A stretch of 64,000 nt of DNA from a virus (taxonomy: Duplodnaviria; Caudoviricetes): positions 4,067 to 68,066 of IMG/VR virus record IMGVR_UViG_2529293276_000003, one strand, 5' to 3'. Positions 1 to 64,000 of this stretch are shown here, one piece after another; within the stretch, counting starts at the first letter, position 1; each line of letters opens with the position of its first letter. Below the pieces are notes generated by a model. The model worked only from the letters and a program-made list of their open reading frames with translations. It had not been told where the DNA came from and ran no database searches. A program made the translations under genes and the position numbers.

Positions 1-3000
1 TGATGCAGATTGTTTATCCGTTTCATCAAATATCTGTGAATAACGAGTGTCTTCGTTGCTATCTGTAGTAACCTGTGTTATATTGGTTTCGTTTGAAGCT
101 CCCACATCAGTACGAGCGGAATAGGACTGATTGTGCGTAGGACTGGTTTTGCCATCACCCTTGCCAGTACCATCTTCAAATATCTCAAATGCGGTGATCA
201 CCCAAGCATTACTGCCTTCAGCTTTCCTTAGAGCCACAAAGTAACCTTTGTGAGTAATCTTAATATTTTTTACGCCATTAGATGAATTATAAGCATCTGC
301 TGTACTGCCTTGTGCAATAGTCTCCACAATGTTGTGTGTCAGCATCTCAACCACTTCATCATAACTCATCTTATCCTTACGGATTCTTGCTTCTATGATA
401 TGACTGATGCCTTTAGCTCCTTTGGTTTTACCATTGGTTTTGATGATGCCTGTATCACCCCAAACAAAATCAATCCATCCAATATCGTTACGATACATAG
501 CACGCTTAACATCCGCTTTGGTTGTGATGGCTTTATTCATGGCTTCTGTACCACGCTTAATATTGGCTTGAACTGACTTCATAGCAGAAGCACTAAAGCG
601 AGTATCATTACTTGTTAAGGTCAGTAAATCCACAGGTGGATTATCCATGATGGTTTCAACATTTTGTACAAATGCTTTATATCCATCACCCTTAAAACCA
701 AGCACCTTAGATGCTAAGCGTACCAAGAAATCCATCACAGATGAGATGCCTTTTCTTGGTTTGATACCTAAATCAGCAAGCTCCATAGCGTAATCAATAT
801 AACGCATCATCTCAGGGTCAGTCATACCATAAGCGATAAACTCACTTAAGCCAGCATAATGATTACCATTAGTTGTATCAGCTTCTTGAGATGCTTTGAT
901 GACTTCCATGATTTGATTAACATAAGTTAAATCATCTTCTTTGGTGTCATGACGACTATGCCCATACTTTTTATTAAACGCTACATCTTCTTGCCACTGA
1001 GCCATGACAGCATCAAGCATCTTATTCAGATGATTTAATTCACTGCGTAGGTCTTGAGCGTTAGAGATGATGGCGTACTCAGTCAGAGCGTGTACAAGCT
1101 CATGATTGATAACTCGTAGCTTATTCTCATCGTTACCACTTTGGCTAAAGGTTTGGTTATCCAAAGTCAATGTATGGGTAGTTACATTATAGCTTCCATA
1201 GGCACGAGTACCATTAGGCGTAGTTACATCAGCAAACTTCACAGACATCTTGCTTAGGTGTTGGTTGGCTTTACCCATCAACATCTTATTAAGCTTTAAC
1301 TGTACTTCACTGACATTAACCAAACCTTTAATGGTTTGGTCAAGCTGTTTTAGGTTTTGGATTGTTGGCTCAGTTGGTGTACTGGACGAGTTAGTAAATG
1401 CAGCTCCCTGAGTACCGTCTGTTCCTGTACTTGTTGTGGGAAGTTGGGAAACTTGTTCTGTTGCTCTGGTGTCAGAGAGTTGTACAATTCCAGACTCGCT
1501 TGTTTGCTGTTTTGTAGTATCTGTTCTTTTGTTTGGTTCATAACTCATTACCTTAATAGTTGTATTAAGAGCCAAATCTTTTTCTAATTGATTGATTTGA
1601 TCTACAACCTTATTCTTTTCTTTAAGAGCAGTTTGACGATCAGCATCTGTTACTTGATACTCACCAAATTCACCTGCATACTGATGCAGATAAGCCAAAT
1701 TAGCTAACTGATCTAGTTTATTAAGCTCAGTATCTCTAACTTCATCAACTAGACTGGAGAGTTCTTGGGTAAGCTCAGCAAAGACTTCATTGTCATGGAA
1801 ATCTTTACGAATAACCCCATCTTTAATAAGTGCATAGCTACTTTGGATAACACTGGTTAATGCCCGTAATGACTCAAGCTGACCATGATAACTTACCAAA
1901 GCTTGGAAGGTTGCTCTGTTTTGTTGGGTAATCATATCAAGCTGATTATCAATAGCCCCAATATTTGCATCATGGACATTAATATTAATCTTCTTACCCA
2001 TAGCCATAGCAAAGGATGAGATATAACTATCCATAGACTGTGTTTGAACAGAGTTAGCCAATAGAGCTTTATCTTCAAGATGTATATGTCTTGCAGGACT
2101 ACCAAACGAAGTCGCTTGATACTTACCTGATTTATTTACCAAGAAGAAGCTGTTATTGGTCAGATTCGCTTTATCTACGAACAAAATCTCTGCTAAGCGT
2201 GTTAAACGAACCTTAGCTTTGGATTCATTATTTTGTACAGAATATACATTATGAATCTGTGCCTGAACTTTATCCATCACAGAATGGACAAGCTCTTCAC
2301 GCTCTTTATCAGATAAACCACGATAGCTAATTTCTTTAAGAGCTAATTCGTTTGCCAGTCCCCTATCTAAACCAGTCTCAACTAAAGCATTAGAGATTCT
2401 CTCTGCAACAGTCTGTATAGCACGCTCTTCTACTTCATGATACATTTGAGTAAATAACTCAACTGTACTGCTTAGTATACGCATATTGACTTTATTCTTC
2501 TCAATATAAACAGCTTCATAGTCCTGCAGTACTTCTGCAAGATATTGACCCATAGTAAAGCTATATTTATTATCTAACATAGCTTCATCTTTAGGGCTAA
2601 TCCAAGCTTCTAGCATATATTTGAGATCTAAGTTCTCATTAATAACCACTGCTTTAGGCTCATTATCAATAGTAATATCCCATTGAATAGGCTTTTGTGT
2701 CATGAATGAGAATAAACGGTCTACTGTCATTACTTGGTTTAGAAGCTTAGCTCTTTGGGTGTCATACTCTAACTGAGTCATTTGACCTGCTTCTAGGGCT
2801 TTTTTATTTGCAATATCCTGTTGAGCAGCAAGTGTAATATTATCTTGCATCTCTTTTAAGAAAGTACGAAATACAGCTTTCTTAAGTGATTTAATACCTG
2901 CACCATAGTTAAATGGAATCAAGACACTCTTAGCCACTGCTCGTTTAGTCAGACTCTTTTGTACTCTCATTAATGCACGAAAAACCTGTTTATTATGGTT

Positions 3001-6000
3001 GGCTAGATCTTTTTCTAAATTCGCATGAAACCCCATAATAAAAGCTTCTTGTGCTTTCTCATTAATGACAGCGTTCTTAAAGGCAGTATAATAATCACCC
3101 AAATTCTTATCATGACGAGCATCAAAATAAGATTTAAAGGGGTCATTAAAACTAAAAAAACCCGTGCGTAATAATAACTCTTTATAAAATGCACCATTCC
3201 AAAAGTGAGCCAATGCTGCACCGTTATTTAAACCATCAGAGCCTAAACCAAGTGATGTTGTAAAATTAGCGTGATTATTTTCTTGTGCAGTTTGAAAATC
3301 TGCCCATTCTCTTAGAGCTCTTAAAGAATTAGCTCCCATCTTCATTTCTGCAATAGCACTACTGAGATGATTCATCTCTGTAGATGAAATCTTATCACCT
3401 GCTTGTGCTTTAGAAACAATCTCTGTCGCTTTTTGGATATGCTCTTGGTTTAGGTATTCTATAAAAGCAGGAATAAGCACATAACTGGGCAGCTTATCTA
3501 CGGTAAACCCTTCTGTGAATATTTCTTTAGAACCTGTACTTTCAAAATAAACTTCAATGAAGTCTTCACTGCCTTCCATATTCTCAGCTAATGCACGCAG
3601 GAAGTAAGTCAGGTTTAATTCATCTTTAGTCAAATGTTTAGAATGAATTTCTTTACCATACTCTTTAAGCTTGCTTTGTAAAGAGTCTAATACTGATGAG
3701 CCATCTTTATTCTTAAGCTGTACAGTTACTTTAAAGTTACTAGGCTCAGCCATAGCACGGTGTAGTTTAGAAGATTGATAGTTAAAGACATTACTGTTAT
3801 AGTGCATACGACTATTAACAGCCATAAACATTGTATCCCAGTACTTACGGACACCATCTACTTTTGGTATGCTATTGATGAAATCTACAGCATTTGTCCA
3901 ATCACGCATAACAGCTTCTGCCTTACCTTCTAAACCATCACGGTCATTGATATGAGCTGTTTGTAGTTCACCTTCTTTTAACTTAGCACCAATCATCTCA
4001 AGGAAAGCATCTTCATGTTGGGAAGCCAAATTAGTTAATAGACTAAAGGTAGGTTCATTAATCACATTTGCATGGGCTTGTGCTTTAGCAACACGCTGGG
4101 CTTGTAGGTCAGTAACTGTTGCATCAGTTCGTTTGATTCTACGCTTAACATTAGCAACGCTTTCTTCTATTGGCTTAAGTGATGGCATGCGTACAGCACT
4201 AACACCACCCATAATATCTGTCAGATAGCCTGCTGTACCTTTATTGGCTTCACTGATTTCATTGATACGTTTGTTTATACCTTCACCTTCTTTATTGGTA
4301 ATAGAGACAAAACGAACAGTACCATGTGAATTAAAATCTTTTTCATCAATAACACCACGAACTTCTTCAATAGCTTTTTTATGTTTTTCACTAGAAATGC
4401 TATGTAAGTGAATTAAATCCGCAGATTGCATTGCTGATAATGCCCAAGTACCCAGTGCAGAATACAGACGAGAATCTACCGTAATAGAACCATTTTCTGT
4501 ACGCTGAATGTTTAATGTTTCAGCAATTCGTTTACCTAAATCATCAGCAACCTTGACATAACCTGAGCCAATATACTTATAGGTTTCCCACATTTCTTTA
4601 GTAATGTGAGCATTGTTTTTTTGTTCTACATCCTTACTGGTTAAACCAAGCAAAGCAAGAATATCATCACGCATATTCATAGTATGATTAGCAACGCTAT
4701 TTAGATAGTCATAAGCACCATAACTTAGTGCATCTAAAACATTACTATCAAATTCACCAGTTTGTTTATCATAGAAGTAGTTTGCCAACGCTCTGTTTTC
4801 ATAACCTTCATCCGTTGGTTTAAATACTTGTTTTAGATGCTCACGAAACTCAGCAGTAAACTCAGCAAAATCATTAATCTGTTCTCTTTGTGCTTTTGTA
4901 GGTGGCTCAAGATTTAATATCTGACTGGCTTTAACTGGATTTGTATAAAGCTCTCTGACAAAGTTTTGGATACTACTTAACGGTTTATGTAGTGTCTGTA
5001 CTTGCCTAAAGCTTGTTTTTAAGATATTTCTAACAGCTTTAGAATCCTTTGTTGCAGTAATAGGTTTTGTCAGATCTTCCTCAATATTTTTAGCAGGCTC
5101 ATTTAATTGGCGTATTTTAGCTTCAGAAGATTTAGAGAAATTACCTTCGCTATCTAAAACACTCAAAGAAGTGCTATCACTAACAATACCTAACAGTTTT
5201 GTATACGCTGTAGATTCATCTTTACTAAACCCAAAGAAATTAGTAACAGCATCCATTAAAGCATGATAAGCCTTAGTAACTTTGTTCTTACCACGAGATA
5301 CTTTAACTTGTTTTAGTACAGACTTAACATCTTCATTAAATAAACCAAGCTGTAATAAATCAGCAGCAGAATCCGTTGCTCTCATCAGTAGTGCTTTACT
5401 GTTTTCAGTAAATTTTTGATTTGGGTCAGATAAGATTTTACGCATGTGCTTACGCACATCTTTATTGATACTGTCTATTGTTAAGCGTAATTCACCCAGC
5501 TTGGCTTGTCTGTCAATAACTTCATCATCAAAGAGCGTATCAGTGTTTTGTTTACCTTCTTTTCTATTAGCATCTCTTTGTTTTTTGGCTTCAATGTTAG
5601 CCAAGGCAGTCACATGATCTAGGGTATCTAGTTCATCAGCAATGTTACCAATCTGCTTATGTACCATTGCTTGAGCAATATCACGAGTAATATCTTTACT
5701 ATCTTCACTCACACGGATAATGTCATCATCATAACTGGCTTTTTCGTCATAGCTAGTTTTGTCTTGAATCTTAACTTTAATATCAGGACTATATCTAGAC
5801 AATACACTGATTAGTGCTTGGTTTTCAGCTTGAGATTTATCTTTAGTTTTAATCTGAGATGATTCTATAGAACTGGCTAAATCACTTACTTTAACTGGCT
5901 TATTGATAAAGCTCTTTTCAATAGGCGTATTTGTAATATAAACTGTATCTTCTGCTTTGTTTTCTTCTTTTGCTTTAGAAGTAGATTCTAGTTTACGAAC

Positions 6001-9000
6001 CTGCATTGGTTTTAGTACAGTTTCTTTCGTGATTGCATTACTAGCACGGTTCGTTGGTATAGATGAATTACGCTTTACTGCAACTGCCTCTTGTGGTGTT
6101 ATAAGCTCATCTGCAGAAGATTCAGCCTCTTGGGTAGAGTTTTCTTTTGTATTGGTAGAAACATCTGTAGGAAGCGTCTTTGTCGCTTCTGTGGTGTTAT
6201 TTTGATGAGATTCAAAGACACTAAGGTCAAAACCAGTATTTGTATTTTCATCAATACCAGTTTCAGTAATTCCATTATTATCAGTAATATTAGGTGGAGT
6301 ATTATTTCCTGCATTACCGCTGTTTAAATCAGTATTTGTATTACTAGTACTATTAGTAGCTGTATATTCATTGAACTTATTTAAATCATCTTTAGAAAAG
6401 ACATGGGGTTTATATAAGTTATCTTCTTTACCAAAGGTATTCGTATCAATAGGTCGTTGAATTTCACTATGAAACTGACCATCTGCCATTAATGTACCCA
6501 TATTAGATAGAACATTAAAGACAGCTTGTGGTTGCTCTTTATATGATATTTTTTGTAGTGCTGGGTGTTTACGGAGTTCTTCTACCACTCTAGGAACAAT
6601 CGCAGCTTCACTAAACGCTGAGTTACTCATCTTGTGCTGTACAACAAAACCAGTATTAGGGTCAGCAGCCATCTGTAATAATGCACGACTAAAGTCTTGG
6701 TTATTGCTAACAGCAACACGCATAAAGTCCATATAGCGGTTAGCACTTTCAATCATAGCAGCATCTTTACCTGCCTGCGTACCATCATGCACAATGCTAT
6801 ACATATCCCCACCAAACTCTTCTATCAACTTAAGCTTCTGTTGATCATGAGCGTTGGTTGAATTGACATAGATGGGTGATTGGATAGGTGATCCAAAGAT
6901 ACCTGCTTTAATGACTTCTTTATTTTCATCAGTAAAGACATTACTTCTAACAGTAACTTGACCAGTTTTAGGGTCTTTAGCTGACCCAGTACCACGATAG
7001 ATACTAGATAAAGATACTGTTGCCATTTTACCTTCATCATTGACCTGCCTTTCACCACGCCCAAGCCAAACATAATTAGGTGTTGCCACGCCTTCTTGGA
7101 TTTTACGCTGATATTCACCCACACTACTATCACGAGCCAAAGTATCGTTATATGGGTTTGTAGGCAAACGAAAAGGTTTTCTTTGGGTAGGTACACTAGA
7201 TGGTGTTTTTGTTACAGGTGGTGTAACAGGTATAGATTCTTGTGTAGGTGTTGTTGTAGGCTCTATAGTAGGGTCTGATGTTGTAACATCAGCTACAGGC
7301 GTTTGATTAATATTTGATGCACGAGTAACTTGTACAGGCTGTTGTTGCTGAGATACGCCAGTATTAATTTGACTGAAGTCTGTTAAACCAAAGTCTGATA
7401 CTTTAACTGATTCTTTAATGCGGTCAGATGCACCATGTAACTCATAAGCTTTATCATAACCTTGTTTGATTTGATTAAGATGAGCAGCTTCTTCAATCAA
7501 ATTATTAACAAAGTTTCTTGAGATATTACTAATCTCAATAGCACCTGTTTTAGCACGCAACTCTTTTGAGATACTGCCTTCATGTACTTCCCATTCTTGG
7601 CTATCTGCTTTACGGGCAATATACAACGGCTGTTGATTTTCATCAAAGCTATCCATTGCTTGTTTAGCAGCACTCGCTTTAGATGTATGGCTTTCATTGA
7701 ATCTAGACAAGTGATTATAGTAACTGTCTAGTACGCCAATATCATCTGTCTTTAAGTACTGTACCAAACCTTGTTGGTAGCTTTGTAAACCAATATAACC
7801 ATCTTCAGCACGCTTGGCTTTTTTACCAATATAAATATCATGCTTAACATCGTCTGTATTTTTAGTCGCATTTTCTACAACACGCACTTCCTTTAATAAG
7901 CGAAGTTTCTCAGCGTGTTTTTCACTTAATGCACCTTGTTCTACCAAAATGTTAATCATGTCATCAGAGAGCATCTCAGAATAACGGATGACTTGATCAA
8001 AGGTATCTTGCTGTGCTTTACTGACTGCTTCAGACTCTACAGAGACTTGTTCTTGTTGTGAGTTAGTCTGATTATCAGCAACCTGTGCTTCTAGTGAGCT
8101 AATCTTGTCTTGCAACGCTTTTTGAGCTTCTGCTTCTTTAGTTTTGGTTTTTTCATCTTTTAATTTCGTTATTAAACTTTCTAGTCGCTCTTGTGCTGTA
8201 CGGTTATCATCTACATTTATATTACTGTTATTAGACTGACTAGAAAAAGACCCAGTGTAATTAGAGCCTAATAGACGATTAATATCAGCATGACCCTTAT
8301 CTAACTTGGCTTCATGTGTGCTAGAGTCAAATGATGCACCGCTTTTTAATTTATTTTGACCATAAGCCCAACCAATAGCAGCATGACCCCAGCGTCTGTC
8401 TTTTAAGTCAGGGTTGGCTTGTTTTAAGAAGTTACGAGTATCATAAGTACCACCTCTATACTGACTAAGTGTTATTCCACCACTTTTCATTTCTTGCATA
8501 AAAAAAGCAGCCATTGCATCTAAACTGGCTTGTGTTTGTGGAATACCTGACTCTTTAACATCAATTCCCCTATCTTTTAAAAACTTAAATAGGTTAGTAC
8601 GCCTGCCTTGTTGCCAACTGATGAAGCCAAAGTTATTAGCACCATTAGCATGGTCTGAGTGAGAACCAAACATAGTCTTAGCACTAAAGCCATTTTCACG
8701 GTTTACCTCACCAATTAAGTAGCGTGCCTGCCCATCAGTAAAGCCTGCTTTACGAAAAGCCGTATAAGTACCCATAATCAAGTCATCACGACTCTTATTG
8801 CTATTATCAATACTGAAGTTAGTTGAGTACTGAGATGTACCTGTTACTGCTTGTCCTTGTGCTTGGGTAATACCTACTTTGTCATAAATTGGTTTATACC
8901 ATCCACTATCAGGGTGTGCTTTGTATTTATCTGCTTTAGCATAATCAAAACCACCAAGGAAAGTTACACCCATTTCCTTAGCAATATTAGCTAAGTCAGT

Positions 9001-10983
9001 ATTCATGCGAGTACCAAGCTTACTGTCATCTTTAAAGTTATTAGCAACACCCATAACTTGTACGGATGCACCATTATCTTTTAGATACTTAATCTGCTTA
9101 CGGATTGTGTTTAAATCAGCCTTGGTATTATTAGATAAGCCAGTAGATAGAACGACAGTTTTACCTTGTAATTCACTCTTACTAAGTTTCGTGATGGTAT
9201 TAAGTACTTCATTAGGATTACGACCGTCTTTACTGTAAGAAGTAACACCAGCCTTTTTATATTGATTACCAAACGCATTGGCAATGCTATCACCAATGGC
9301 AATAACGCCTGTAGATGCTTGCTGTATATTAGTAGTACCAGTCCCAACACCATCCACATTAGTATATTCAGGGATTTCAGGTTGATAATTAACAGCATCC
9401 GTCAGTTGTTGGTCTGCTTGTTGTTTGCGGTTATGATAAGCTTCAGCATTTAGGTCAAGAATACGCTGTAAGACTTCATCAGAAGACATTTCTTGGGATA
9501 ACTGTAAGTTACTTACTTGTTCTAACGCAGCAACGGTATCTTGTAAGGGTTGTACTTGGTTATTAAACCAATCATTTCGCTTTTTTTGTAATTTCTCTTT
9601 TTTCTTACCATCAGGCAGTTGTGCCAGTTTTTCATCAAATTCAGTAAGACGACTCATAGCCGTTGTTAATGCTTGAGTCTGTTCAGCTTTAGCACTATCA
9701 ATATCTATCTCACCTAAAGCAGCTTTGCCTGCACTGACTTGATAAGCATAATTAGGATCATAGTTTTTGTTATTTGGGTCTGTCTTTAAAGTAGACCTAA
9801 AACCCTTAACATCCCCTACTGCTGCTTTTATGTTACCTACTATAGCAGGACCACCTGCCATACCAAAGCCTACAGCAGCTTCCATACCTGCATCTTTACC
9901 TACTTTACCCCAATCAATTTTACCTTCTTTTTGTTGTTGGTTTAGAGCAGATTCTAATGCACCTTGTACAGCTTCCTGACCTGTTTCAGTAGCTGTATTA
10001 ACAGCTGTTGTACGAGCTCTATTTGCAGAGTTAGCTAATATCCTTGAAACACCTCCATTAGCAATGATTTGTTCAGTAGAAAATGAAGAAGGCAATCCTT
10101 TACTAACAAGACCTAGACCTGCACCTGTAGCGAGATCATAAGCCATATCCCTATGCGTGCTATAGCCCTTATCCTTTGCTGTATCACCCATCTCTACAAC
10201 AGCAGATGTAACTGCTGTACCTATTCCTGCTCTTGTACTTGCTGATAAAGCTGCATTAGCTACCTTTGCAGCCCTGCCAATAGCACCTGCAGGAAGTGCT
10301 TGGGGTAAAGATGATCCAGCACCTGAAGCCAAGAGATTAGGTTTAGTTAAACTATGCCCAAAAGTAGCAGCAAATTTGAGTAAAGGGTTTTCAATATCTT
10401 TAACTGCTTCATCTACTTCAGCTTTTTGACGGTAATATTCATTAGAGTATTTTTTAGCTATATATTCTTCTATAGCCTTTGCATCATAGATTCCCAGCTT
10501 CTTTAATGCAGCTTGATATATCCCTGCATTGACAACTCGCCCTGCTATCTTCTGTTCACTCTCAGGCATTGGAATTAAAGGTTTGGAGTCTCCAGTAAAC
10601 ATAGAATAAGCGTTATTAACTGGATTAACAACATGCTGTGTAAATAGTGTATCAGCTGTTGCTAAACCACCTTGAATTAATGAGTTTACACCTGAAGCAG
10701 CACCCCATCCTGTATCAGTGAGTATGTTACCTCCGTTATGTCTAGCTGTGACTTTAGGAGAATATACAGGAGCAATCTCAGGTGTAATAGTGTTATTTGT
10801 AGCAGCTTGCTTATAAAAACTATTTTCTGAAGTCAATCGTGCAGCTTCTTCATCTGTAAGACGCTTCTGTCTTTCGCTATGGGTTTCAATACCCATCCTC
10901 TTTTGGGCTTGTTCTACTTGAGCAATATTGCGTGATTGGGCTGCTTGTAATTTTTGAAGAACTTTATCAAGATCAGTACTCAT
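1..10983 (-). CDS. N4-like virion-encapsidated RNA polymerase, polyvalent, 3'-truncated by the window edge (at least 3661 aa)
   Basis: ATG at 10983 with upstream GGATAG. Hand reading found no in-frame stop in the stretches checked, and all motifs are in one frame to position 1: VNSRMHY..YQSSKLHRAM (~3770-3820), motif A SDGLNNG (~3220-3240), motif B RAVAKSVLIPFNYG (R-x3-K-x7-YG, ~2900-2945), motif C NVHDA (~1965-1980). Located next to N4-type structural genes. Confidence 0.95.
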   Translation of the reverse strand, partial: MSTDLDKVLQKLQAAQSRNIAQVEQAQKRMGIETHSERQKRLTDEEAARLTSENSFYKQAATNNTITPEIAPVYSPKVTARHNGGNILTDTGWGAASGVNSLIQGGLATADTLFTQHVVNPVNNAYSMFTGDSKPLIPMPESEQKIAGRVVNAGIYQAALKKLGIYDAKAIEEYIAKKYSNEYYRQKAEVDEAVKDIENPLLKFAATFGHSLTKPNLLASGAGSSLPQALPAGAIGRAAKVANAALSASTRAGIGTAVTSAVVEMGDTAKDKGYSTHRDMAYDLATGAGLGLVSKGLPSSFSTEQIIANGGVSRILANSANRARTTAVNTATETGQEAVQGALESALNQQQKEGKIDWGKVGKDAGMEAAVGFGMAGGPAIVGNIKAAVGDVKGFRSTLKTDPNNKNYDPNYAYQVSAGKAALGEIDIDSAKAEQTQALTTAMSRLTEFDEKLAQLPDGKKKEKLQKKRNDWFNNQVQPLQDTVAALEQVSNLQLSQEMSSDEVLQRILDLNAEAYHNRKQQADQQLTDAVNYQPEIPEYTNVDGVGTGTTNIQQASTGVIAIGDSIANAFGNQYKKAGVTSYSKDGRNPNEVLNTITKLSKSELQGKTVVLSTGLSNNTKADLNTIRKQIKYLKDNGASVQVMGVANNFKDDSKLGTRMNTDLANIAKEMGVTFLGGFDYAKADKYKAHPDSGWYKPIYDKVGITQAQGQAVTGTSQYSTNFSIDNSNKSRDDLIMGTYTAFRKAGFTDGQARYLIGEVNRENGFSAKTMFGSHSDHANGANNFGFISWQQGRRTNLFKFLKDRGIDVKESGIPQTQASLDAMAAFFMQEMKSGGITLSQYRGGTYDTRNFLKQANPDLKDRRWGHAAIGWAYGQNKLKSGASFDSSTHEAKLDKGHADINRLLGSNYTGSFSSQSNNSNINVDDNRTAQERLESLITKLKDEKTKTKEAEAQKALQDKISSLEAQVADNQTNSQQEQVSVESEAVSKAQQDTFDQVIRYSEMLSDDMINILVEQGALSEKHAEKLRLLKEVRVVENATKNTDDVKHDIYIGKKAKRAEDGYIGLQSYQQGLVQYLKTDDIGVLDSYYNHLSRFNESHTSKASAAKQAMDSFDENQQPLYIARKADSQEWEVHEGSISKELRAKTGAIEISNISRNFVNNLIEEAAHLNQIKQGYDKAYELHGASDRIKESVKVSDFGLTDFSQINTGVSQQQQPVQVTRASNINQTPVADVTTSDPTIEPTTTPTQESIPVTPPVTKTPSSVPTQRKPFRLPTNPYNDTLARDSSVGEYQRKIQEGVATPNYVWLGRGERQVNDEGKMATVSLSSIYRGTGSAKDPKTGQVTVRSNVFTDENKEVIKAGIFGSPIQSPIYVNSTNAHDQQKLKLIEEFGGDMYSIVHDGTQAGKDAAMIESANRYMDFMRVAVSNNQDFSRALLQMAADPNTGFVVQHKMSNSAFSEAAIVPRVVEELRKHPALQKISYKEQPQAVFNVLSNMGTLMADGQFHSEIQRPIDTNTFGKEDNLYKPHVFSKDDLNKFNEYTATNSTSNTNTDLNSGNAGNNTPPNITDNNGITETGIDENTNTGFDLSVFESHQNNTTEATKTLPTDVSTNTKENSTQEAESSADELITPQEAVAVKRNSSIPTNRASNAITKETVLKPMQVRKLESTSKAKEENKAEDTVYITNTPIEKSFINKPVKVSDLASSIESSQIKTKDKSQAENQALISVLSRYSPDIKVKIQDKTSYDEKASYDDDIIRVSEDSKDITRDIAQAMVHKQIGNIADELDTLDHVTALANIEAKKQRDANRKEGKQNTDTLFDDEVIDRQAKLGELRLTIDSINKDVRKHMRKILSDPNQKFTENSKALLMRATDSAADLLQLGLFNEDVKSVLKQVKVSRGKNKVTKAYHALMDAVTNFFGFSKDESTAYTKLLGIVSDSTSLSVLDSEGNFSKSSEAKIRQLNEPAKNIEEDLTKPITATKDSKAVRNILKTSFRQVQTLHKPLSSIQNFVRELYTNPVKASQILNLEPPTKAQREQINDFAEFTAEFREHLKQVFKPTDEGYENRALANYFYDKQTGEFDSNVLDALSYGAYDYLNSVANHTMNMRDDILALLGLTSKDVEQKNNAHITKEMWETYKYIGSGYVKVADDLGKRIAETLNIQRTENGSITVDSRLYSALGTWALSAMQSADLIHLHSISSEKHKKAIEEVRGVIDEKDFNSHGTVRFVSITNKEGEGINKRINEISEANKGTAGYLTDIMGGVSAVRMPSLKPIEESVANVKRRIKRTDATVTDLQAQRVAKAQAHANVINEPTFSLLTNLASQHEDAFLEMIGAKLKEGELQTAHINDRDGLEGKAEAVMRDWTNAVDFINSIPKVDGVRKYWDTMFMAVNSRMHYNSNVFNYQSSKLHRAMAEPSNFKVTVQLKNKDGSSVLDSLQSKLKEYGKEIHSKHLTKDELNLTYFLRALAENMEGSEDFIEVYFESTGSKEIFTEGFTVDKLPSYVLIPAFIEYLNQEHIQKATEIVSKAQAGDKISSTEMNHLSSAIAEMKMGANSLRALREWADFQTAQENNHANFTTSLGLGSDGLNNGAALAHFWNGAFYKELLLRTGFFSFNDPFKSYFDARHDKNLGDYYTAFKNAVINEKAQEAFIMGFHANLEKDLANHNKQVFRALMRVQKSLTKRAVAKSVLIPFNYGAGIKSLKKAVFRTFLKEMQDNITLAAQQDIANKKALEAGQMTQLEYDTQRAKLLNQVMTVDRLFSFMTQKPIQWDITIDNEPKAVVINENLDLKYMLEAWISPKDEAMLDNKYSFTMGQYLAEVLQDYEAVYIEKNKVNMRILSSTVELFTQMYHEVEERAIQTVAERISNALVETGLDRGLANELALKEISYRGLSDKEREELVHSVMDKVQAQIHNVYSVQNNESKAKVRLTRLAEILFVDKANLTNNSFFLVNKSGKYQATSFGSPARHIHLEDKALLANSVQTQSMDSYISSFAMAMGKKININVHDANIGAIDNQLDMITQQNRATFQALVSYHGQLESLRALTSVIQSSYALIKDGVIRKDFHDNEVFAELTQELSSLVDEVRDTELNKLDQLANLAYLHQYAGEFGEYQVTDADRQTALKEKNKVVDQINQLEKDLALNTTIKVMSYEPNKRTDTTKQQTSESGIVQLSDTRATEQVSQLPTTSTGTDGTQGAAFTNSSSTPTEPTIQNLKQLDQTIKGLVNVSEVQLKLNKMLMGKANQHLSKMSVKFADVTTPNGTRAYGSYNVTTHTLTLDNQTFSQSGNDENKLRVINHELVHALTEYAIISNAQDLRSELNHLNKMLDAVMAQWQEDVAFNKKYGHSRHDTKEDDLTYVNQIMEVIKASQEADTTNGNHYAGLSEFIAYGMTDPEMMRYIDYAMELADLGIKPRKGISSVMDFLVRLASKVLGFKGDGYKAFVQNVETIMDNPPVDLLTLTSNDTRFSASAMKSVQANIKRGTEAMNKAITTKADVKRAMYRNDIGWIDFVWGDTGIIKTNGKTKGAKGISHIIEARIRKDKMSYDEVVEMLTHNIVETIAQGSTADAYNSSNGVKNIKITHKGYFVALRKAEGSNAWVITAFEIFEDGTGKGDGKTSPTHNQSYSARTDVGASNETNITQVTTDSNEDTRYSQIFDETDKQSAS

Positions 10984-11051
10984 AGTTTATCTATCCAATT
11001 ACTTAAGAAATAAAGTAAGTTTACAACTAGAGCAGGACAGATAACTAATTT

Positions 11052-11066
11052 GCGTCCGTTGGACGC
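11052..11066 (+). promoter_or_regulatory. GC-rich hairpin with 3-nt loop (GCGTCC-GTT-GGACGC), candidate phage-RNAP promoter
   Basis: Perfect 6-bp stem followed by TTTTGTGG, about 50 nt upstream of ATG 11116. Same architecture as the CCGCC-TTT-GGCGG copies. Confidence 0.35.
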
Positions 11067-11115
11067 TTTTGTGGTTTGTTTTTTATTAATTCTTTTAACT
11101 TATAGGAGTAATATT

Positions 11116-11442
11116 ATGTCTCTTACTAAAATTGATACACTCATTTCAACATTTCAAGATGCCATTACTGTATTGACAGAAATGAAAGAAGAAGTGAATG
11201 AACCTAAACCAGTCATACTACAAGAACCATCAGCTTCTACAACTGAAGTATATCTTAGAACTGAAGTACTCTACCCTTGGACAAAGCTAAAAAGATGGTG
11301 TACACAAAACCATGTACAACCAGTCAAAAAAGACCATTATGGTTTGATGATTAACCATTACCCTGCTTCAGCATGGTTAGAAGTATTTGGGGTAGATATT
11401 ATTGAGATCATGTCATTGAAGCTAATTGATGAAGCTGTATGA
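11116..11442 (+). CDS. Hypothetical protein with antirepressor-like C-terminal domain
   Basis: GGAG RBS before ATG 11116 (the track start at 11050 looks too long). C-terminal WTKLKRWC...YGLMINHYPASAWLEVFG resembles C-terminal domains of phage antirepressors. Confidence 0.45.
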   Translation: MSLTKIDTLISTFQDAITVLTEMKEEVNEPKPVILQEPSASTTEVYLRTEVLYPWTKLKRWCTQNHVQPVKKDHYGLMINHYPASAWLEVFGVDIIEIMSLKLIDEAV

Positions 11443-11498
11443 GTCAATATTTATATGGGATATTTATATATTTTATAGTTAATATAAGTACCCTTGTA

Positions 11499-11526
11499 TT
11501 GACACTGTGCACGGAAACCTTATTAT
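11499..11526 (+). promoter_or_regulatory. Sigma70-type promoter for the IrrE/membrane-protein operon
   Basis: TTGACA-N16-TATTAT, followed by the RBS AAGGGGGAG before ATG 11570. Confidence 0.65.
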
Positions 11527-11569
11527 ATACTTACACTAGCCACTGGTTTGTTAAGTATAAGGGGGAGAT

Positions 11570-12046
11570 ATGACCTATGCAGTAAATATGGCTCGTAATA
11601 TCCTAAGTACTTACTGGGATAGACAGCTGCCTATTAAGCCAGAAGATATTGCAGAAGCTTTAGGTGTAACAGTGATTTTGGATAGCGATATGGAAGACAC
11701 GACATCAGGTTCTTATAGCCTTGATGGAGATCAGCCAGTTATCCGAGTTAATGCTAACCAGCACTCAAACCGTCAGAGATTTACCCTTGCCCATGAGTTA
11801 GGACACCATGTCCTACTACATGGGGAGCGTGAAGATAGTCCTGTGACATTGTTTCGTCAAGAAGGTACAACCAATAATCTTGAGATTGAAGCCAATGCTT
11901 TTGCAGCAGAGTTACTGATGCCAAAAGGCGTGATTGATTATGTGGTAGAGAACGCTACCAAACCAACCATACAATATATGGCAGAGCAATTTTGGGTATC
12001 TGAACAAGCCATGATCTACCGCTTAAGGAATACTGGATGGCTATAA
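11570..12046 (+). CDS. ImmA/IrrE-family (peptidase M78) zinc metallopeptidase
   Basis: RQRFTLAHELGH (HExxH) and EIEANAFAAELLMP, with a C-terminal HTH-like segment (AEQFWVSEQAMIYRL). Confidence 0.92.
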   Translation: MTYAVNMARNILSTYWDRQLPIKPEDIAEALGVTVILDSDMEDTTSGSYSLDGDQPVIRVNANQHSNRQRFTLAHELGHHVLLHGEREDSPVTLFRQEGTTNNLEIEANAFAAELLMPKGVIDYVVENATKPTIQYMAEQFWVSEQAMIYRLRNTGWL

Positions 12047-12462
12047 AGCGAGAGAAGGCATTAACCACTCCAGTGATAGATGCAGTCAATGCAGAGCTAC
12101 AAACCAATCAACAACGAGCAGAACTTGAAAAGGTTCGTATGCTTTGGTTTAGAGTAGCTGTTATTGTGGCTCTAGCTATTGCGATTACATTTGCTCTATT
12201 AGCCATCCGATTAGTGTGTGCTTACATTAGGTTAACCCAATCACTTACTGTAGTGCCTGCACTAGAGTACTACTGGCATATGCCTTTGATGTTCTTACTG
12301 GCTTGCACCACTTTGGTGATCATCACTCTACATTCAGTAGCTTCCTTTGGTCAATCTAATGAAGCCAAGGATAACAATCACCCTGCTGAGAGTTTACTGG
12401 ATAAGGTCACTGAACTGTGTAATAAAGTAGTAGAGTTGATTTCAAAATCTGAGAGTAAGTGA
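12037..12462 (+). CDS. Two-TM membrane protein, translationally coupled to the IrrE gene
   Basis: 10-bp overlap with the upstream gene. Hydrophobic segments at about aa 36-62 and 82-102. Confidence 0.8.
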   Translation: MAIKREKALTTPVIDAVNAELQTNQQRAELEKVRMLWFRVAVIVALAIAITFALLAIRLVCAYIRLTQSLTVVPALEYYWHMPLMFLLACTTLVIITLHSVASFGQSNEAKDNNHPAESLLDKVTELCNKVVELISKSESK

Positions 12463-12548
12463 GTAGAGCAACTCTATTGACAGGGTTTAGCTTAATAGGG
12501 TAATCTTTTTATACTAGGTATTTATATTACTTTAAAGCCAACCAAACC

Positions 12549-12563
12549 ACCGCCAAAGGCGGT
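12549..12563 (-). promoter_or_regulatory. ACCGCC-TTT-GGCGGT hairpin (reverse copy), phage promoter or terminator
   Basis: Same 13-bp core as at 37725 and 53581, in the opposite orientation. Confidence 0.45.
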
Positions 12564-12601
12564 AATCTTATATTACTTATATTAACTAGTAGTTACTAAC
12601 T

Positions 12602-12859
12602 ATGAATAAGAAACCAGAGAAAATAACCATCAAGATTAAGAAAGAGGATTTAGGTGATCTTGATGAAATTACGATTGAAGTACAACAAAGAGAATCTGCT
12701 GTAGATAGAGTATTAAATAAATCAATAGAAGGTGCTCAATCATTACATCACAAAGCCAAAGTAAACGGCTGGTATCGTAAAATCAAGATACTAGTTATAA
12801 CTGTTTTAGTTATCTATTTAAGTATTTGGATAACAATTTTTATTGAAATACTCATTTGA
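12602..12859 (+). CDS. Small protein with C-terminal TM helix
   Basis: 85-aa ORF ending KILVITVLVIYLSIWITIFIEILI. Confidence 0.7.
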   Translation: MNKKPEKITIKIKKEDLGDLDEITIEVQQRESAVDRVLNKSIEGAQSLHHKAKVNGWYRKIKILVITVLVIYLSIWITIFIEILI

Positions 12860-61886: not shown

Positions 61887-62972
61887 ATGTATTCTGTATT
61901 TAATCCCAACCCCAATGATGCTACCCAAGAGCCAATGTTCTTGGGTGAATCAGTGAATGTATCACGGTTTGATAAACAACGATACCCTATCTTTGAACAG
62001 CTTACAGAAAAACAAATCAGTTTCTTTTGGAGACCTGAGGAGATTGATGTATCTAAAGACCGTAGAGACTTTATTGAGCTACCTGAACATGAACAACATA
62101 TCTTTGTATCTAATCTAAAATACCAAACACTACTAGATAGTGTACAAGGTCGTAGTCCTAATGTTGTATTATTACCTTTGGTTTCAGTACCTGAACTTGA
62201 AACTTGGATTGAAACATGGGCTTTTTTTGAAAGTATTCATGCTCGTAGTTATACGCACATTATCCGCAATATCTTTAATAATCCCAGTGAGATTTTAGAT
62301 GATATTGTGATTAACCCTGAGATTATCAAAAGAGCTGAATCCATCTCAAAATACTATGATGAACTACATAGCTTATCTTTAGAGTATCAGCAAGGTAAGC
62401 AGGTAGATATGTATGAGCTAAGAAAACGCTTATATCTGTGCATTATGAGCGTCAATGTGCTTGAAGCTATCCGCTTTTATGTATCATTTGCCTGTTCATT
62501 TGCTTTTGCTGAACGAAAAGTGATGGAAGGTAATGCTAAGATTATCAAATTAATTGCAAGAGATGAAGCATTACATTTGAATGGTACACAACATATCCTA
62601 ACTTTATTGGTAAAAGAACATGAAGATTATCAGACAATTACTCAAACATGTAAAGATGAGATTTACGATATATTTGAGTCTGCTTATGAACAAGAGCGAG
62701 CTTGGATTGACTATTTATTTAAAGACGGCTCTATGATTGGTTTAAATAAAGAGATATTGACTCAATATCTTCAGTATATTACCGATATTCGTATGAGTGC
62801 CATTGGCTTAGAGCCTGTTTTTAATACCAAAAACCCAATCCCTTGGATTAATAATTGGTTATCTTCTGATAATGTCCAAGTAGCCCCACAAGAAACAGAG
62901 ATTACATCTTATGTTGTAGGTCAGATTGATTCTGATTTGAGTGATTTAGATTTTAATGATGTACAGCTATAA
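61887..62972 (+). CDS. nrdB: Class Ia ribonucleotide reductase beta subunit
   Basis: [35 protein letters not shown] and C-terminal [10 protein letters not shown]. Confidence 0.96.
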
Positions 62973-63001: not shown

Positions 63002-64000
63002 TTAATTAAAGTAACTGGCTAATTCATCAACAGTAGGGTTATAGTAAACATTTACTAAGGTTTTAATATCCTTATGTCCTGTAATTTTAGCCAGCTTTTC
63101 TACAGGGATATTTAAATCCCTAACCATCCTTGATATGGCTTCATGTCTTGTATCATGAAAATGTAAATCTTTAATCCATAATTGCTGTCGCATTCTTCTC
63201 CATATCAAATTAAAATTATCTAAGCGAATACAAAATAACCTGTCTGTTAATGGGGTAACTTGTTTTAGCATTTGTCTTGCTGTTGTATTTAAGATCACAT
63301 TCCTAGCCATACCATTTTTACTATGACTAATATGCACATAGTTTTCATGGATATGGTCTTTAGTAAGTGCTAATATCTCTCCCCTACGCATGGCTGTTTG
63401 CAGGGCAAATAAGAAACACCAACCCACTTGTTTTCTACAAGTATCAGGAACATCCCCTAAAGTATAACCTGTCCATTGTAGTATTTTGGCTTCTTCTTCA
63501 AGGGTAATTCTTCTATCCCTAGAAGCTGGTTTACTGGGTCGTTTGACTTTATTCATTGGATTGGTTTCAAAAATATATAACTCATTAATTGCATAATTAA
63601 ATACACAATTTAAAAAAGATAATTCAAGTAATACAGAACCTTGAGATACCTGTAATAAGCGTCTGTCCCTGTATGCAGATAATTGTTTGGGGGTAATTTG
63701 TGTAATTGCAGTTGTAACCAAATCAGGGTGCTGTTTCACCATAATATTAATAATACTCTCAGCTCTTTTACCGTTTTTACGCAAGCTTAGTACTTTATTT
63801 CTGTATATATCAATCACTTCTAATAAACTCAGGTTACTTTGTTCATTAAAATAAAGCAGTTCTTGGCACAGTGTATTAAACCAGTCTATACATTCTTGTT
63901 CTGATGATTTCGTTGCTGAGTATCTTTTACCATGTATCATGGTTTGGATACGATACCTACAACCCACCTGACTAATCTTAGGGATATTTTTAAGTACCAT
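63002..64000 (-). CDS. int: Tyrosine recombinase / phage integrase (start at the window edge, may extend further)
   Basis: TAMRRGEI (R), HFHDTRH (HxxR), ITGH (H) and NVYY (Y). N-terminal arm-binding-like beta segment. Confidence 0.93.
   Translation of the reverse strand: MVLKNIPKISQVGCRYRIQTMIHGKRYSATKSSEQECIDWFNTLCQELLYFNEQSNLSLLEVIDIYRNKVLSLRKNGKRAESIINIMVKQHPDLVTTAITQITPKQLSAYRDRRLLQVSQGSVLLELSFLNCVFNYAINELYIFETNPMNKVKRPSKPASRDRRITLEEEAKILQWTGYTLGDVPDTCRKQVGWCFLFALQTAMRRGEILALTKDHIHENYVHISHSKNGMARNVILNTTARQMLKQVTPLTDRLFCIRLDNFNLIWRRMRQQLWIKDLHFHDTRHEAISRMVRDLNIPVEKLAKITGHKDIKTLVNVYYNPTVDELASYFN

Follow-up and report, generated by a model that had tools for sequence, protein, structure and literature searches.

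The virion RNA polymerase (vRNAP) of a temperate N4-like prophage integrated in Moraxella catarrhalis contains a PBECR1-family module of about 185 amino acids (aa), which is probably a metal-independent endoribonuclease of the BECR fold that would be injected to cut host or defence RNA. The DNA analysed, called the window here, is a stretch of 64,000 nucleotides (nt) that corresponds to bases 4067-68066 of a 68,066-base-pair (bp) IMG/VR 'provirus' record (IMGVR_UViG_2529293276_000003) with an estimated completeness of 92%. The fusion of vRNAP and PBECR1 and the idea of an injected RNase are already known. Iyer, Burroughs, Anand, de Souza and Aravind (2017, J Bacteriol 199:e00245-17; PMC5512222), who searched with the N4 vRNAP, described a Moraxella prophage vRNAP with PBECR1 and proposed that phage-delivered PBECR RNases shut off host transcripts or target CRISPR RNAs. 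In addition, NCBI and UniRef give several close relatives of the window protein the name 'putative barnase/colicin E5 family endoribonuclease'. Added here are the exact anatomy of the module, its empty sites and a deletion remnant, and a recombining beta-sheet with four alleles. The features of the module and its surroundings are as follows.

Window 1..10983, minus strand: N4-like virion RNA polymerase gene, first 3661 codons (open reading frame (ORF) list, record translation, phrog_2206, blastp against the vRNAP of Acinetobacter phage Presley).
Window 592..606, minus strand: DTRFS (aa 3460-3464), module start (homology boundary, codon check).
Window 502..603, minus strand: aa 3461-3494, the part of the module that extends N-terminally beyond the Pfam model (alignment A1 and conservation in 146 sequences).
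Window 184..501, minus strand: PBECR1 domain proper, aa 3495-3600 (PF18809, phrog_6398).
Window 400..402, minus strand: H3528, predicted catalytic His in the helix GISHIIEAR (codon check, conservation, model helix 65-77).
Window 217..339, minus strand: hypervariable patch, aa 3549-3589 (end of helix 2 and sheet strands 1-3).
Window 193..195, minus strand: T3597, predicted catalytic alcoholic residue in the last beta-strand, WVITAFE (codon check, conservation, model strand 133-141).
Window 52..183, minus strand: disordered linker, aa 3601-3644, one 'PTH...R...GAS' unit (model confidence, pLDDT, <50).
Window 37..51, minus strand: DTRYS (aa 3645-3649), first residues of the vRNAP C-terminal domain (codon check).

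The preliminary description of this DNA had recognized a PBECR1-type RNase domain in a minus-strand translation, and both the translation, found exactly as given in window 1-720, and the identity of the domain were confirmed. The Pfam family PF18809 (PBECR1) matched over profile positions 1-99 of 104 with an E value of 2.9e-22; its 79.6 bits far exceed the gathering score of 27.6. The match was unchanged when the full 4801-aa protein was scanned. phrog_6398 also matched over the domain (E 1e-33). No second Pfam family was found in the minus-strand piece of window 1-720, even at E<=1, and an NCBIfam scan of the domain piece found no family. The conserved module exceeds the Pfam span: it starts at RFS (aa 3461) and includes the 34-aa N-terminal extension, which carries the near-invariant residues N3474, R3477, G3478 and R3494.

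A search of 1.84 billion representatives gave 535 matches at E<=1e-3, and conservation was assessed in 146 diverse homologues from it. The results showed that H3528 is invariant (146/146) and that R3533, D3505, G3509 and W3594 are each at least 98% conserved. Position 3597 holds Thr in 110 homologues, Ser in 23 and Asn in 13, so that Thr or Ser occupies it in 133 of the 146. The window copy retains all highly conserved residues of the family, including H3528, R3533, D3505 and T3597. The active site of PBECRs was described in PMC5512222 as a His in the N-terminal helix, predicted to act as general acid/base, together with a C-terminal Thr or Ser.

The carrier protein was examined over its full length of 4801 aa. 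Its ORF is cut by the window edge; the record translation shows that the gene extends 3423 nt past the left edge and ends at record base 644. The order of domains is a long N-terminal region, the RNA polymerase (RNAP) core (about aa 2300-3050), a zincin region, the PBECR1 module (aa 3461-3645) and the C-terminal domain (aa 3650-4801). The earlier placement of the domain behind the vRNAP core holds in that the module follows the core and the zincin region, but the module is internal rather than terminal, with about 1150 aa C-terminal of it. Two further features of the protein are as follows.

Window 1969..3810, minus strand: RNAP catalytic core, R2392 to D3005 (MAFFT alignment, codons checked).
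Window 1090..1104, minus strand: HELVH (aa 3294-3298), in the zincin-like metallopeptidase region before the cassette (the sole HExxH in the protein).

The profile phrog_2206 ('virion RNA polymerase') matched the protein twice, at aa 926-3484 (profile 569-2279, E 1e-111) and at aa 3637-4761 (profile 2256-3360, E 9e-177). Both matches join at one profile position, indicating that the PBECR1 segment between them is an insert. In blastp against the Presley vRNAP, aa 2061-3428 aligned to Presley 1084-2314 (E 5e-44) and aa 3659-4761 to Presley 2376-3446 (E 4e-102), and the junction between these blocks measures 230 aa here versus 61 aa in Presley. In tblastn, the last 1084 aa matched vRNAP genes in 422 GenBank records of N4-like phages, with identities of about 25%. 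In the MAFFT alignment, the five catalytic residues of the N4 mini-vRNAP, R424, D559, K670, Y678 and D951, whose letters agree with the N4 sequence, align to R2392, D2583, K2685, Y2693 and D3005, and are kept in 10/10 sequences. A BLAST search of N4 gp50 against the polymerase core gave no direct alignment; the relation was reached through Presley and the multiple alignment. The HExxH has counterparts at aa 2212 of the Presley vRNAP and aa 2228 of the N4 vRNAP, and a zincin-like metallopeptidase region downstream of the N4 polymerase module was described in PMC5512222. The same-strand neighbours of the gene are N4-type virion genes (virion structural protein, major head protein, portal and large terminase). 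These alignments and neighbours indicate that the protein carrying PBECR1 is a true N4-like vRNAP, of the gp50 type of Schitoviridae. With a HELVH zincin, PBECR1, an RNAP module and late-gene neighbours, it has the make-up of a polyvalent protein, and a vRNAP with such domains is cited as an example of that class in PMC5512222.

The protein is about 1300 aa longer than N4 gp50. Most of this surplus precedes the polymerase core, whose start is near aa 2060 here and at about aa 1084 in Presley. Megablast of the vRNAP gene against GenBank phages gave no match, in a search that may not return near-identical records, and phmmer of the first 3661 aa against PDB sequences gave none either.

The fold of the module was modelled with AlphaFold (AF2) on an alignment of the module with 19 short homologues (alignment A1). 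The pLDDT was 85-95 across module residues 8-145, and the final 40 residues were disordered. In module numbering, the modelled elements are a helix at 11-28, strands at 32-38 and 42-46, the His-bearing helix at 65-77, a helix at 81-98 and four strands. Helix 11-28, which belongs to the N-terminal extension, reached a pLDDT >90, and the four-strand sheet with helices 65-77 and 81-98 reached 83-93. A 2026 preprint (10.64898/2026.08.28.747851) assigned PBECRs to the colicin-like group of BECR proteins and described additional strands ahead of the helix with the His, and the two helices and four-stranded sheet modelled here after two extra strands fit that description.

The model was also compared with known structures by a second, Foldseek-independent search that reports Z scores. 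All matches of at least 80 residues were BECR RNase toxins, with weak Z scores of 4.1-5.2. They comprised the CdiA-CT entries 7m5f (Z 5.2, 91 aa), 5i4q (5.2, 87), 6cp9 (5.1, 90), 7vmc (4.7, 99), 8ey4 (4.3, 81) and 6d7y (4.1, 81), and colicin D 5znm (4.9, 82). Shorter matches included BrnT 3u97 (Z 4.3, 71 aa) and the toxin-antitoxin entry 7vd7 (Z 4.9, 78 aa), and the remaining matches, of 42-72 residues, were mostly beta-propeller and other beta-rich proteins. The structural support that the model gives for a BECR fold is coherent but weak.

The vRNAP of N4 is packaged and injected along with the DNA. By analogy with N4, the RNase would enter the cell with the injected vRNAP, the neighbouring zincin may release the RNase domain, and host or defence RNA would be cut at the onset of infection.

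Several points weigh against this interpretation. Foldseek against PDB, a search that had been suggested earlier, returned nothing at E<=0.001, its top match being Serratia CdiA-CT (7m5f_C) at E 0.075. Z scores of 5.2 or less fall in a range where a common arrangement can explain a match. A hidden Markov model built from alignment A1 found no relative among PDB sequences. We found no experimental literature on any PBECR1 concerning RNase activity, packaging, injection or processing. In addition, PMC5512222 reports that the N4 vRNAP is injected unprocessed, which makes release of the domain speculative. Finally, an active RNase made late in infection would have to spare the phage itself, for which the present data offer no explanation.

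We then compared 13 M. catarrhalis alleles in 100-aa segments along the whole protein. The segment aa 3501-3600 was the one of lowest identity in 8 of the 13 alleles, at 43-64%, compared with mostly at least 90% elsewhere. In P0027, for example, identity was 64% in this segment and 97-100% in nearly all others (one at 91%). The variation is limited to the patch at aa ~3549-3589; around it, the His helix, the hairpin GWIDFVWG and the anchor GSNAW...T are constant. Among 70 close relatives, four allele types were distinguished, namely A (17, including the window copy), B (43), C (8) and D (2), which are mutually 45-58% identical, and all four retain the His and the Thr/Ser.

At the DNA level, alleles A and B are 100% identical up to about aa 3500, then 83, 70, 73, 42 and 72% identical in successive 60-nt steps, and again 100% identical after about aa 3600. 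Alleles A and C are 95-100% identical up to about aa 3540, dropping to 28-57%. These steps in nucleotide identity, from 100% to 28-42% and back to 100%, indicate recombination with divergent copies, and they rule out diversifying selection on point mutations as the sole cause of the patch. The breakpoints of the recent swaps fall within the PBECR1 domain. Type D shares its patch, at 94% identity, with P0181, a protein with a backbone only 38% identical where the C-terminal domain starts. Hypervariability limited to the RNase sheet is the signature of a conflict effector, and on the reading of an injected RNase the swapped sheet would alter the choice of substrate or help to evade a host-encoded inhibitor. 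Secondary variable stretches were observed at aa 1-100 of the vRNAP (window ~10684-10983; 60-65% identical in P0064 and P0065) and at aa 3101-3200 (window ~1384-1683; 27% identical in P0017 only).

The same data bear on whether the module is catalytic at all. It could serve as a spacer that binds RNA or protein and is needed to package or eject the giant protein, its RNase chemistry having been lost; the flanking region of the N4 vRNAP is required for encapsidation (PMC5512222), and the Asn found at the Thr position in 13 homologues suggests that some members may be inactive. We regard this as very unlikely, for the window copy still has all the highly conserved residues of the family, and the His and Thr/Ser are kept in the four alleles despite the replaced sheet, which points to selection on catalysis.

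A further step, which we put forward only tentatively and consider doubtful on balance, is that the module behaves as a recombining 'warhead' resembling polymorphic toxins, in which at least four interchangeable sheet alleles, spread across vRNAP backbones that are about 40% identical, retarget the RNase or escape allele-specific inhibitors of the host or of prophages. If this is true, PBECR1 would be the first virion-delivered effector known with population-level specificity switching.

The diversity of the sheet could also come from competition among related phages. The RNase would then be a superinfection weapon that hits cells with a related prophage, and allele-specific inhibitors of resident prophages would drive the four types. 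A near-identical protein with a swapped toxin patch does resemble the diversification of CdiA-CT and colicins, the phage is temperate (integrase at window 63002-64000) with common lysogens, and BECR toxins are usually paired with cognate immunity proteins. However, a comparison of three loci, which is a weak test, showed no candidate immunity gene beside the module or at either end of the vRNAP gene. The comparison spans 10-kb flanks, and the record and the contigs of two relatives end 220-640 bp past the vRNAP stop. Moreover, the 10 kb upstream are 92-98% identical between prophages with allele A and allele B, and a set of opposite-strand genes by the vRNAP start does not track the allele, being common to A and B and mostly absent in C. 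We therefore consider this explanation unlikely.

That gene set occupies window 11050-12859 on the plus strand, where it separates the vRNAP start from the virion genes. It comprises a small regulator-like ORF (phrog_4936), an M78/IrrE-type peptidase (PF06114, E 2e-22) and two ORFs of 141 aa (phrog_25359) and 85 aa. Its content varies: an indel is present in the copy of the allele-B relative L007, and the allele-C relative L008 has the regulator only.

To place these alleles in a wider set of relatives, identities were compared separately for the cassette and for each of its two flanks, zincin and C-terminal.

M. catarrhalis and M. canis proteins: zincin flank 93-100%; cassette 62-99%, with an insert of 219-260 aa; C-terminal flank 91-99%.
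Distant giant vRNAPs P0122-P0125 and P0142-P0172: zincin flank about 23-31% and C-terminal flank about 24-35%, where measurable; cassette absent, with a junction of 20-76 aa.
vRNAP lineage P0074, P0077, M. lincolnii P0082 and P0086-P0091: zincin flank 25-31%; cassette 54-77%; C-terminal flank 22-25% where detected.
Non-polymerase polyvalent proteins of Moraxella and Neisseria: cassette 52-67%; no similarity in either flank.

The preliminary description had suggested a swappable cassette and proposed aligning related vRNAPs for its presence or absence, and the suggestion was supported: the module is present or absent at a fixed junction, its identity is uncoupled from that of the flanks, and its patches recombine. 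The empty-site vRNAPs come from M. marmotae, M. atlantae and metagenomes. P0122 is without PBECR1 yet retains a remnant of the last strand (TAYDLFEE), the PTH...GAS linker and TTRFSQVFDE, indicating that it is a deletion derivative; the fragments P0174 and P0181, which are 81-82% identical to P0122 at the start of the C-terminal domain, have the module. These comparisons document that the module has been gained, lost and transferred at this single junction. The linker unit G..PTH..PT..R...GAS, of about 32-39 aa, is present in one copy in the window protein and in two in many alleles (including P0004, P0009, P0017, P0036 and P0065), and these one or two units account for the length classes of the insert within 219-260 aa. 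A PTH...GAS unit also trails the module in polyvalent proteins of Neisseria and Moraxella.

The fusion would have been ordinary had it been universal in N4-like vRNAPs, but this is not the case: none of the 422 N4-like GenBank records matching the C-terminal domain has PBECR1 in its vRNAP. A tblastn search with the module against 50,697 GenBank phage records gave six records, one Acinetobacter phage and five Helicobacter phages, and none of these matches sits in an N4-like vRNAP. Among the best 150 module-bearing representatives, vRNAP regions are present in only 4-5, and the other carriers are other polyvalent proteins or short proteins. By these counts, the vRNAP fusion is a minority context of the PBECR1 module.

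This distribution bears on a housekeeping role in cis, in which the module would process or trim the phage's own early vRNAP transcripts, or clear RNA from hairpin promoters, rather than act on host RNA. Such a role would suit its covalent link to an RNA polymerase, about 450 aa past the last catalytic Asp. However, the absence of the module from the vRNAPs of the N4-like records and from related giant vRNAPs indicates that it is dispensable for vRNAP function, and it was lost by deletion in one lineage (P0122). Its contexts are mostly non-polymerase, and a hypervariable sheet would be unexpected for such a processor. We judge this role improbable, and continue to favour an injected RNase directed at host or defence RNA.

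Gene 77 of the Acinetobacter phage vB_AbaM_ABMM1 (L003 5443-6384) encodes a 313-aa protein that ends in a PBECR1 module 50% identical to that of the window. It is annotated as 'tetratricopeptide repeat protein', the RNase domain having been missed, and the same architecture occurs in phrog_6398. Giant vRNAPs of the wider clade (P0044-P0046, P0049, P0066, P0068, P0069, P0074, P0077 and P0122-P0172) have differing extra Pfam domains, namely SLT (PF01464), peptidase M15C (PF13539), VanY (PF02557), phage lysozyme (PF18013), NADAR (PF08719), PF21867, PF18798 and PF18812. Judging from these domain matches, the vRNAP is evidently a variable carrier of cell-wall and conflict effectors.

The two short motifs that flank the module, DTRFS and DTRYS, had been read as linkers bracketing a cassette. 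Both do flank the domain, but their origins differ. Homology to unrelated polyvalent proteins starts precisely at x-[FY]-S, and 111 diverse members give the starting consensus [FY]-S-[RQ]-S-[AP]-M-K, in which 91% have the Ser and 63% a Phe or Tyr; [RKQ][FY]S occurs at the module start in 21% of them, against 0.8% in the background. The upstream RFS is thus no neutral linker but the point at which the conserved module begins. In vRNAPs that are without the module, the place of DTRYS is taken by TTRFSQVFDE (P0122), LFSRVMEE (P0123) and RLSQVINE (P0142), and the downstream motif is by this alignment part of the vRNAP backbone, not of the cassette. As a general bracket of PBECR1, the RFS...RYS pair was rejected: a strict D-x-[RKQ]-[FY]-S lies within 110 aa downstream in 8/111 members (7%), against a background of 3%.

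A related motif, D-[IV]-[RK]-[FY]-S-[LR], recurs 3-5 times per protein between the domains of the polyvalent proteins P0071-P0073, where 0.9-1.8 copies are expected by shuffling, and often lies within repeated acidic stretches (P0071, P0072 and P0073, from metagenomes and genomes). D-[IV]-[RK]-[FY]-S may be a junction or processing signal; it is undiscussed in PMC5512222, and we found no paper on it.

The integration of the phage in M. catarrhalis is seen from its relatives and its integrase. The close relatives, which measure 4300-5260 aa, come from M. catarrhalis and M. canis, and some are encoded on large contigs (1.9 Mb in one case). The integrase, together with relatives on large M. catarrhalis contigs, indicates a temperate N4-like phage. 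It is a tyrosine integrase (PF00589, E 2.6e-18) encoded on the minus strand at the right end of the record, and a gene for the small subunit of ribonucleotide reductase (window 61887-62972, plus strand) adjoins it. Moraxella N4-like proviruses have been catalogued in PMC10654107. At the other end, the provirus record stops 643 bp past the vRNAP stop codon, and two independent relative assemblies (L007 and L008) break 219-264 bp after it; the vRNAP stop may be closely followed by the prophage junction or by a repeat. No tRNA was found at the left record end.

Finally, we compared the window protein with known systems. By its description in PMC5512222, the Moraxella prophage vRNAP DR90_1081 (WP_038519592.1) is alike in being an N4-like vRNAP with a HExxH region, PBECR1 and a predicted injected RNase. 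It differs in carrying a lysozyme/transglycosylase domain; the window protein is without a Pfam SLT match, and some of its close relatives have PF01464. The 'PLxRFG domain-containing' polyvalent proteins of M. bovis, M. atlantae and N. meningitidis prophages share a PF18809 module of about 170 aa, 52-67% identical, that starts at x-[FY]-S-x-S-[AP]-M-K and ends in the PTH...GAS linker, but they are without the RNA polymerase and the vRNAP C-terminal domain, their module being joined to, for example, PF18798, PF18819 or PF18858. Coliphage N4 gp50 (3500 aa) and the Presley vRNAP (3492 aa) share with the window protein the catalytic residues, the HExxH region and, at about 25% identity, the C-terminal domain, whereas they have no PBECR1; moreover, N4 and Presley are lytic phages, unlike the integrated window phage with its integrase.

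The colicin D and CdiA-CT tRNase toxins (5znm, 5i4q, 6cp9 and 7m5f) are the best long-coverage structural matches of the module, with a predicted His-dependent, metal-independent chemistry and a toxin surface that diversifies by recombination. In contrast, they have no detectable sequence similarity to it, and they are C-terminal toxins with an adjacent immunity gene that are delivered between bacteria, while the window module is internal, has no immunity gene nearby and is predicted to be delivered by the virion. Because PBECR1 is internal and no co-varying small gene was present in the three loci compared, the system does not conform to polymorphic toxin systems of the CdiA, colicin or Rhs type, and only its allelic swapping resembles them.

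With an exact insertion site, deletion and empty-site variants, and four sheet alleles in an otherwise constant 4801-aa protein, this prophage family provides a natural experiment on the targets of PBECR1 and the selection acting on it. Among sequenced isolates, M. catarrhalis lysogens with these prophages are common, so that material for induction is available. Should the alleles prove to have different RNA targets or sensitivities to inhibitors, this would show how virion-delivered effectors evolve, and it might yield sequence-specific RNases.

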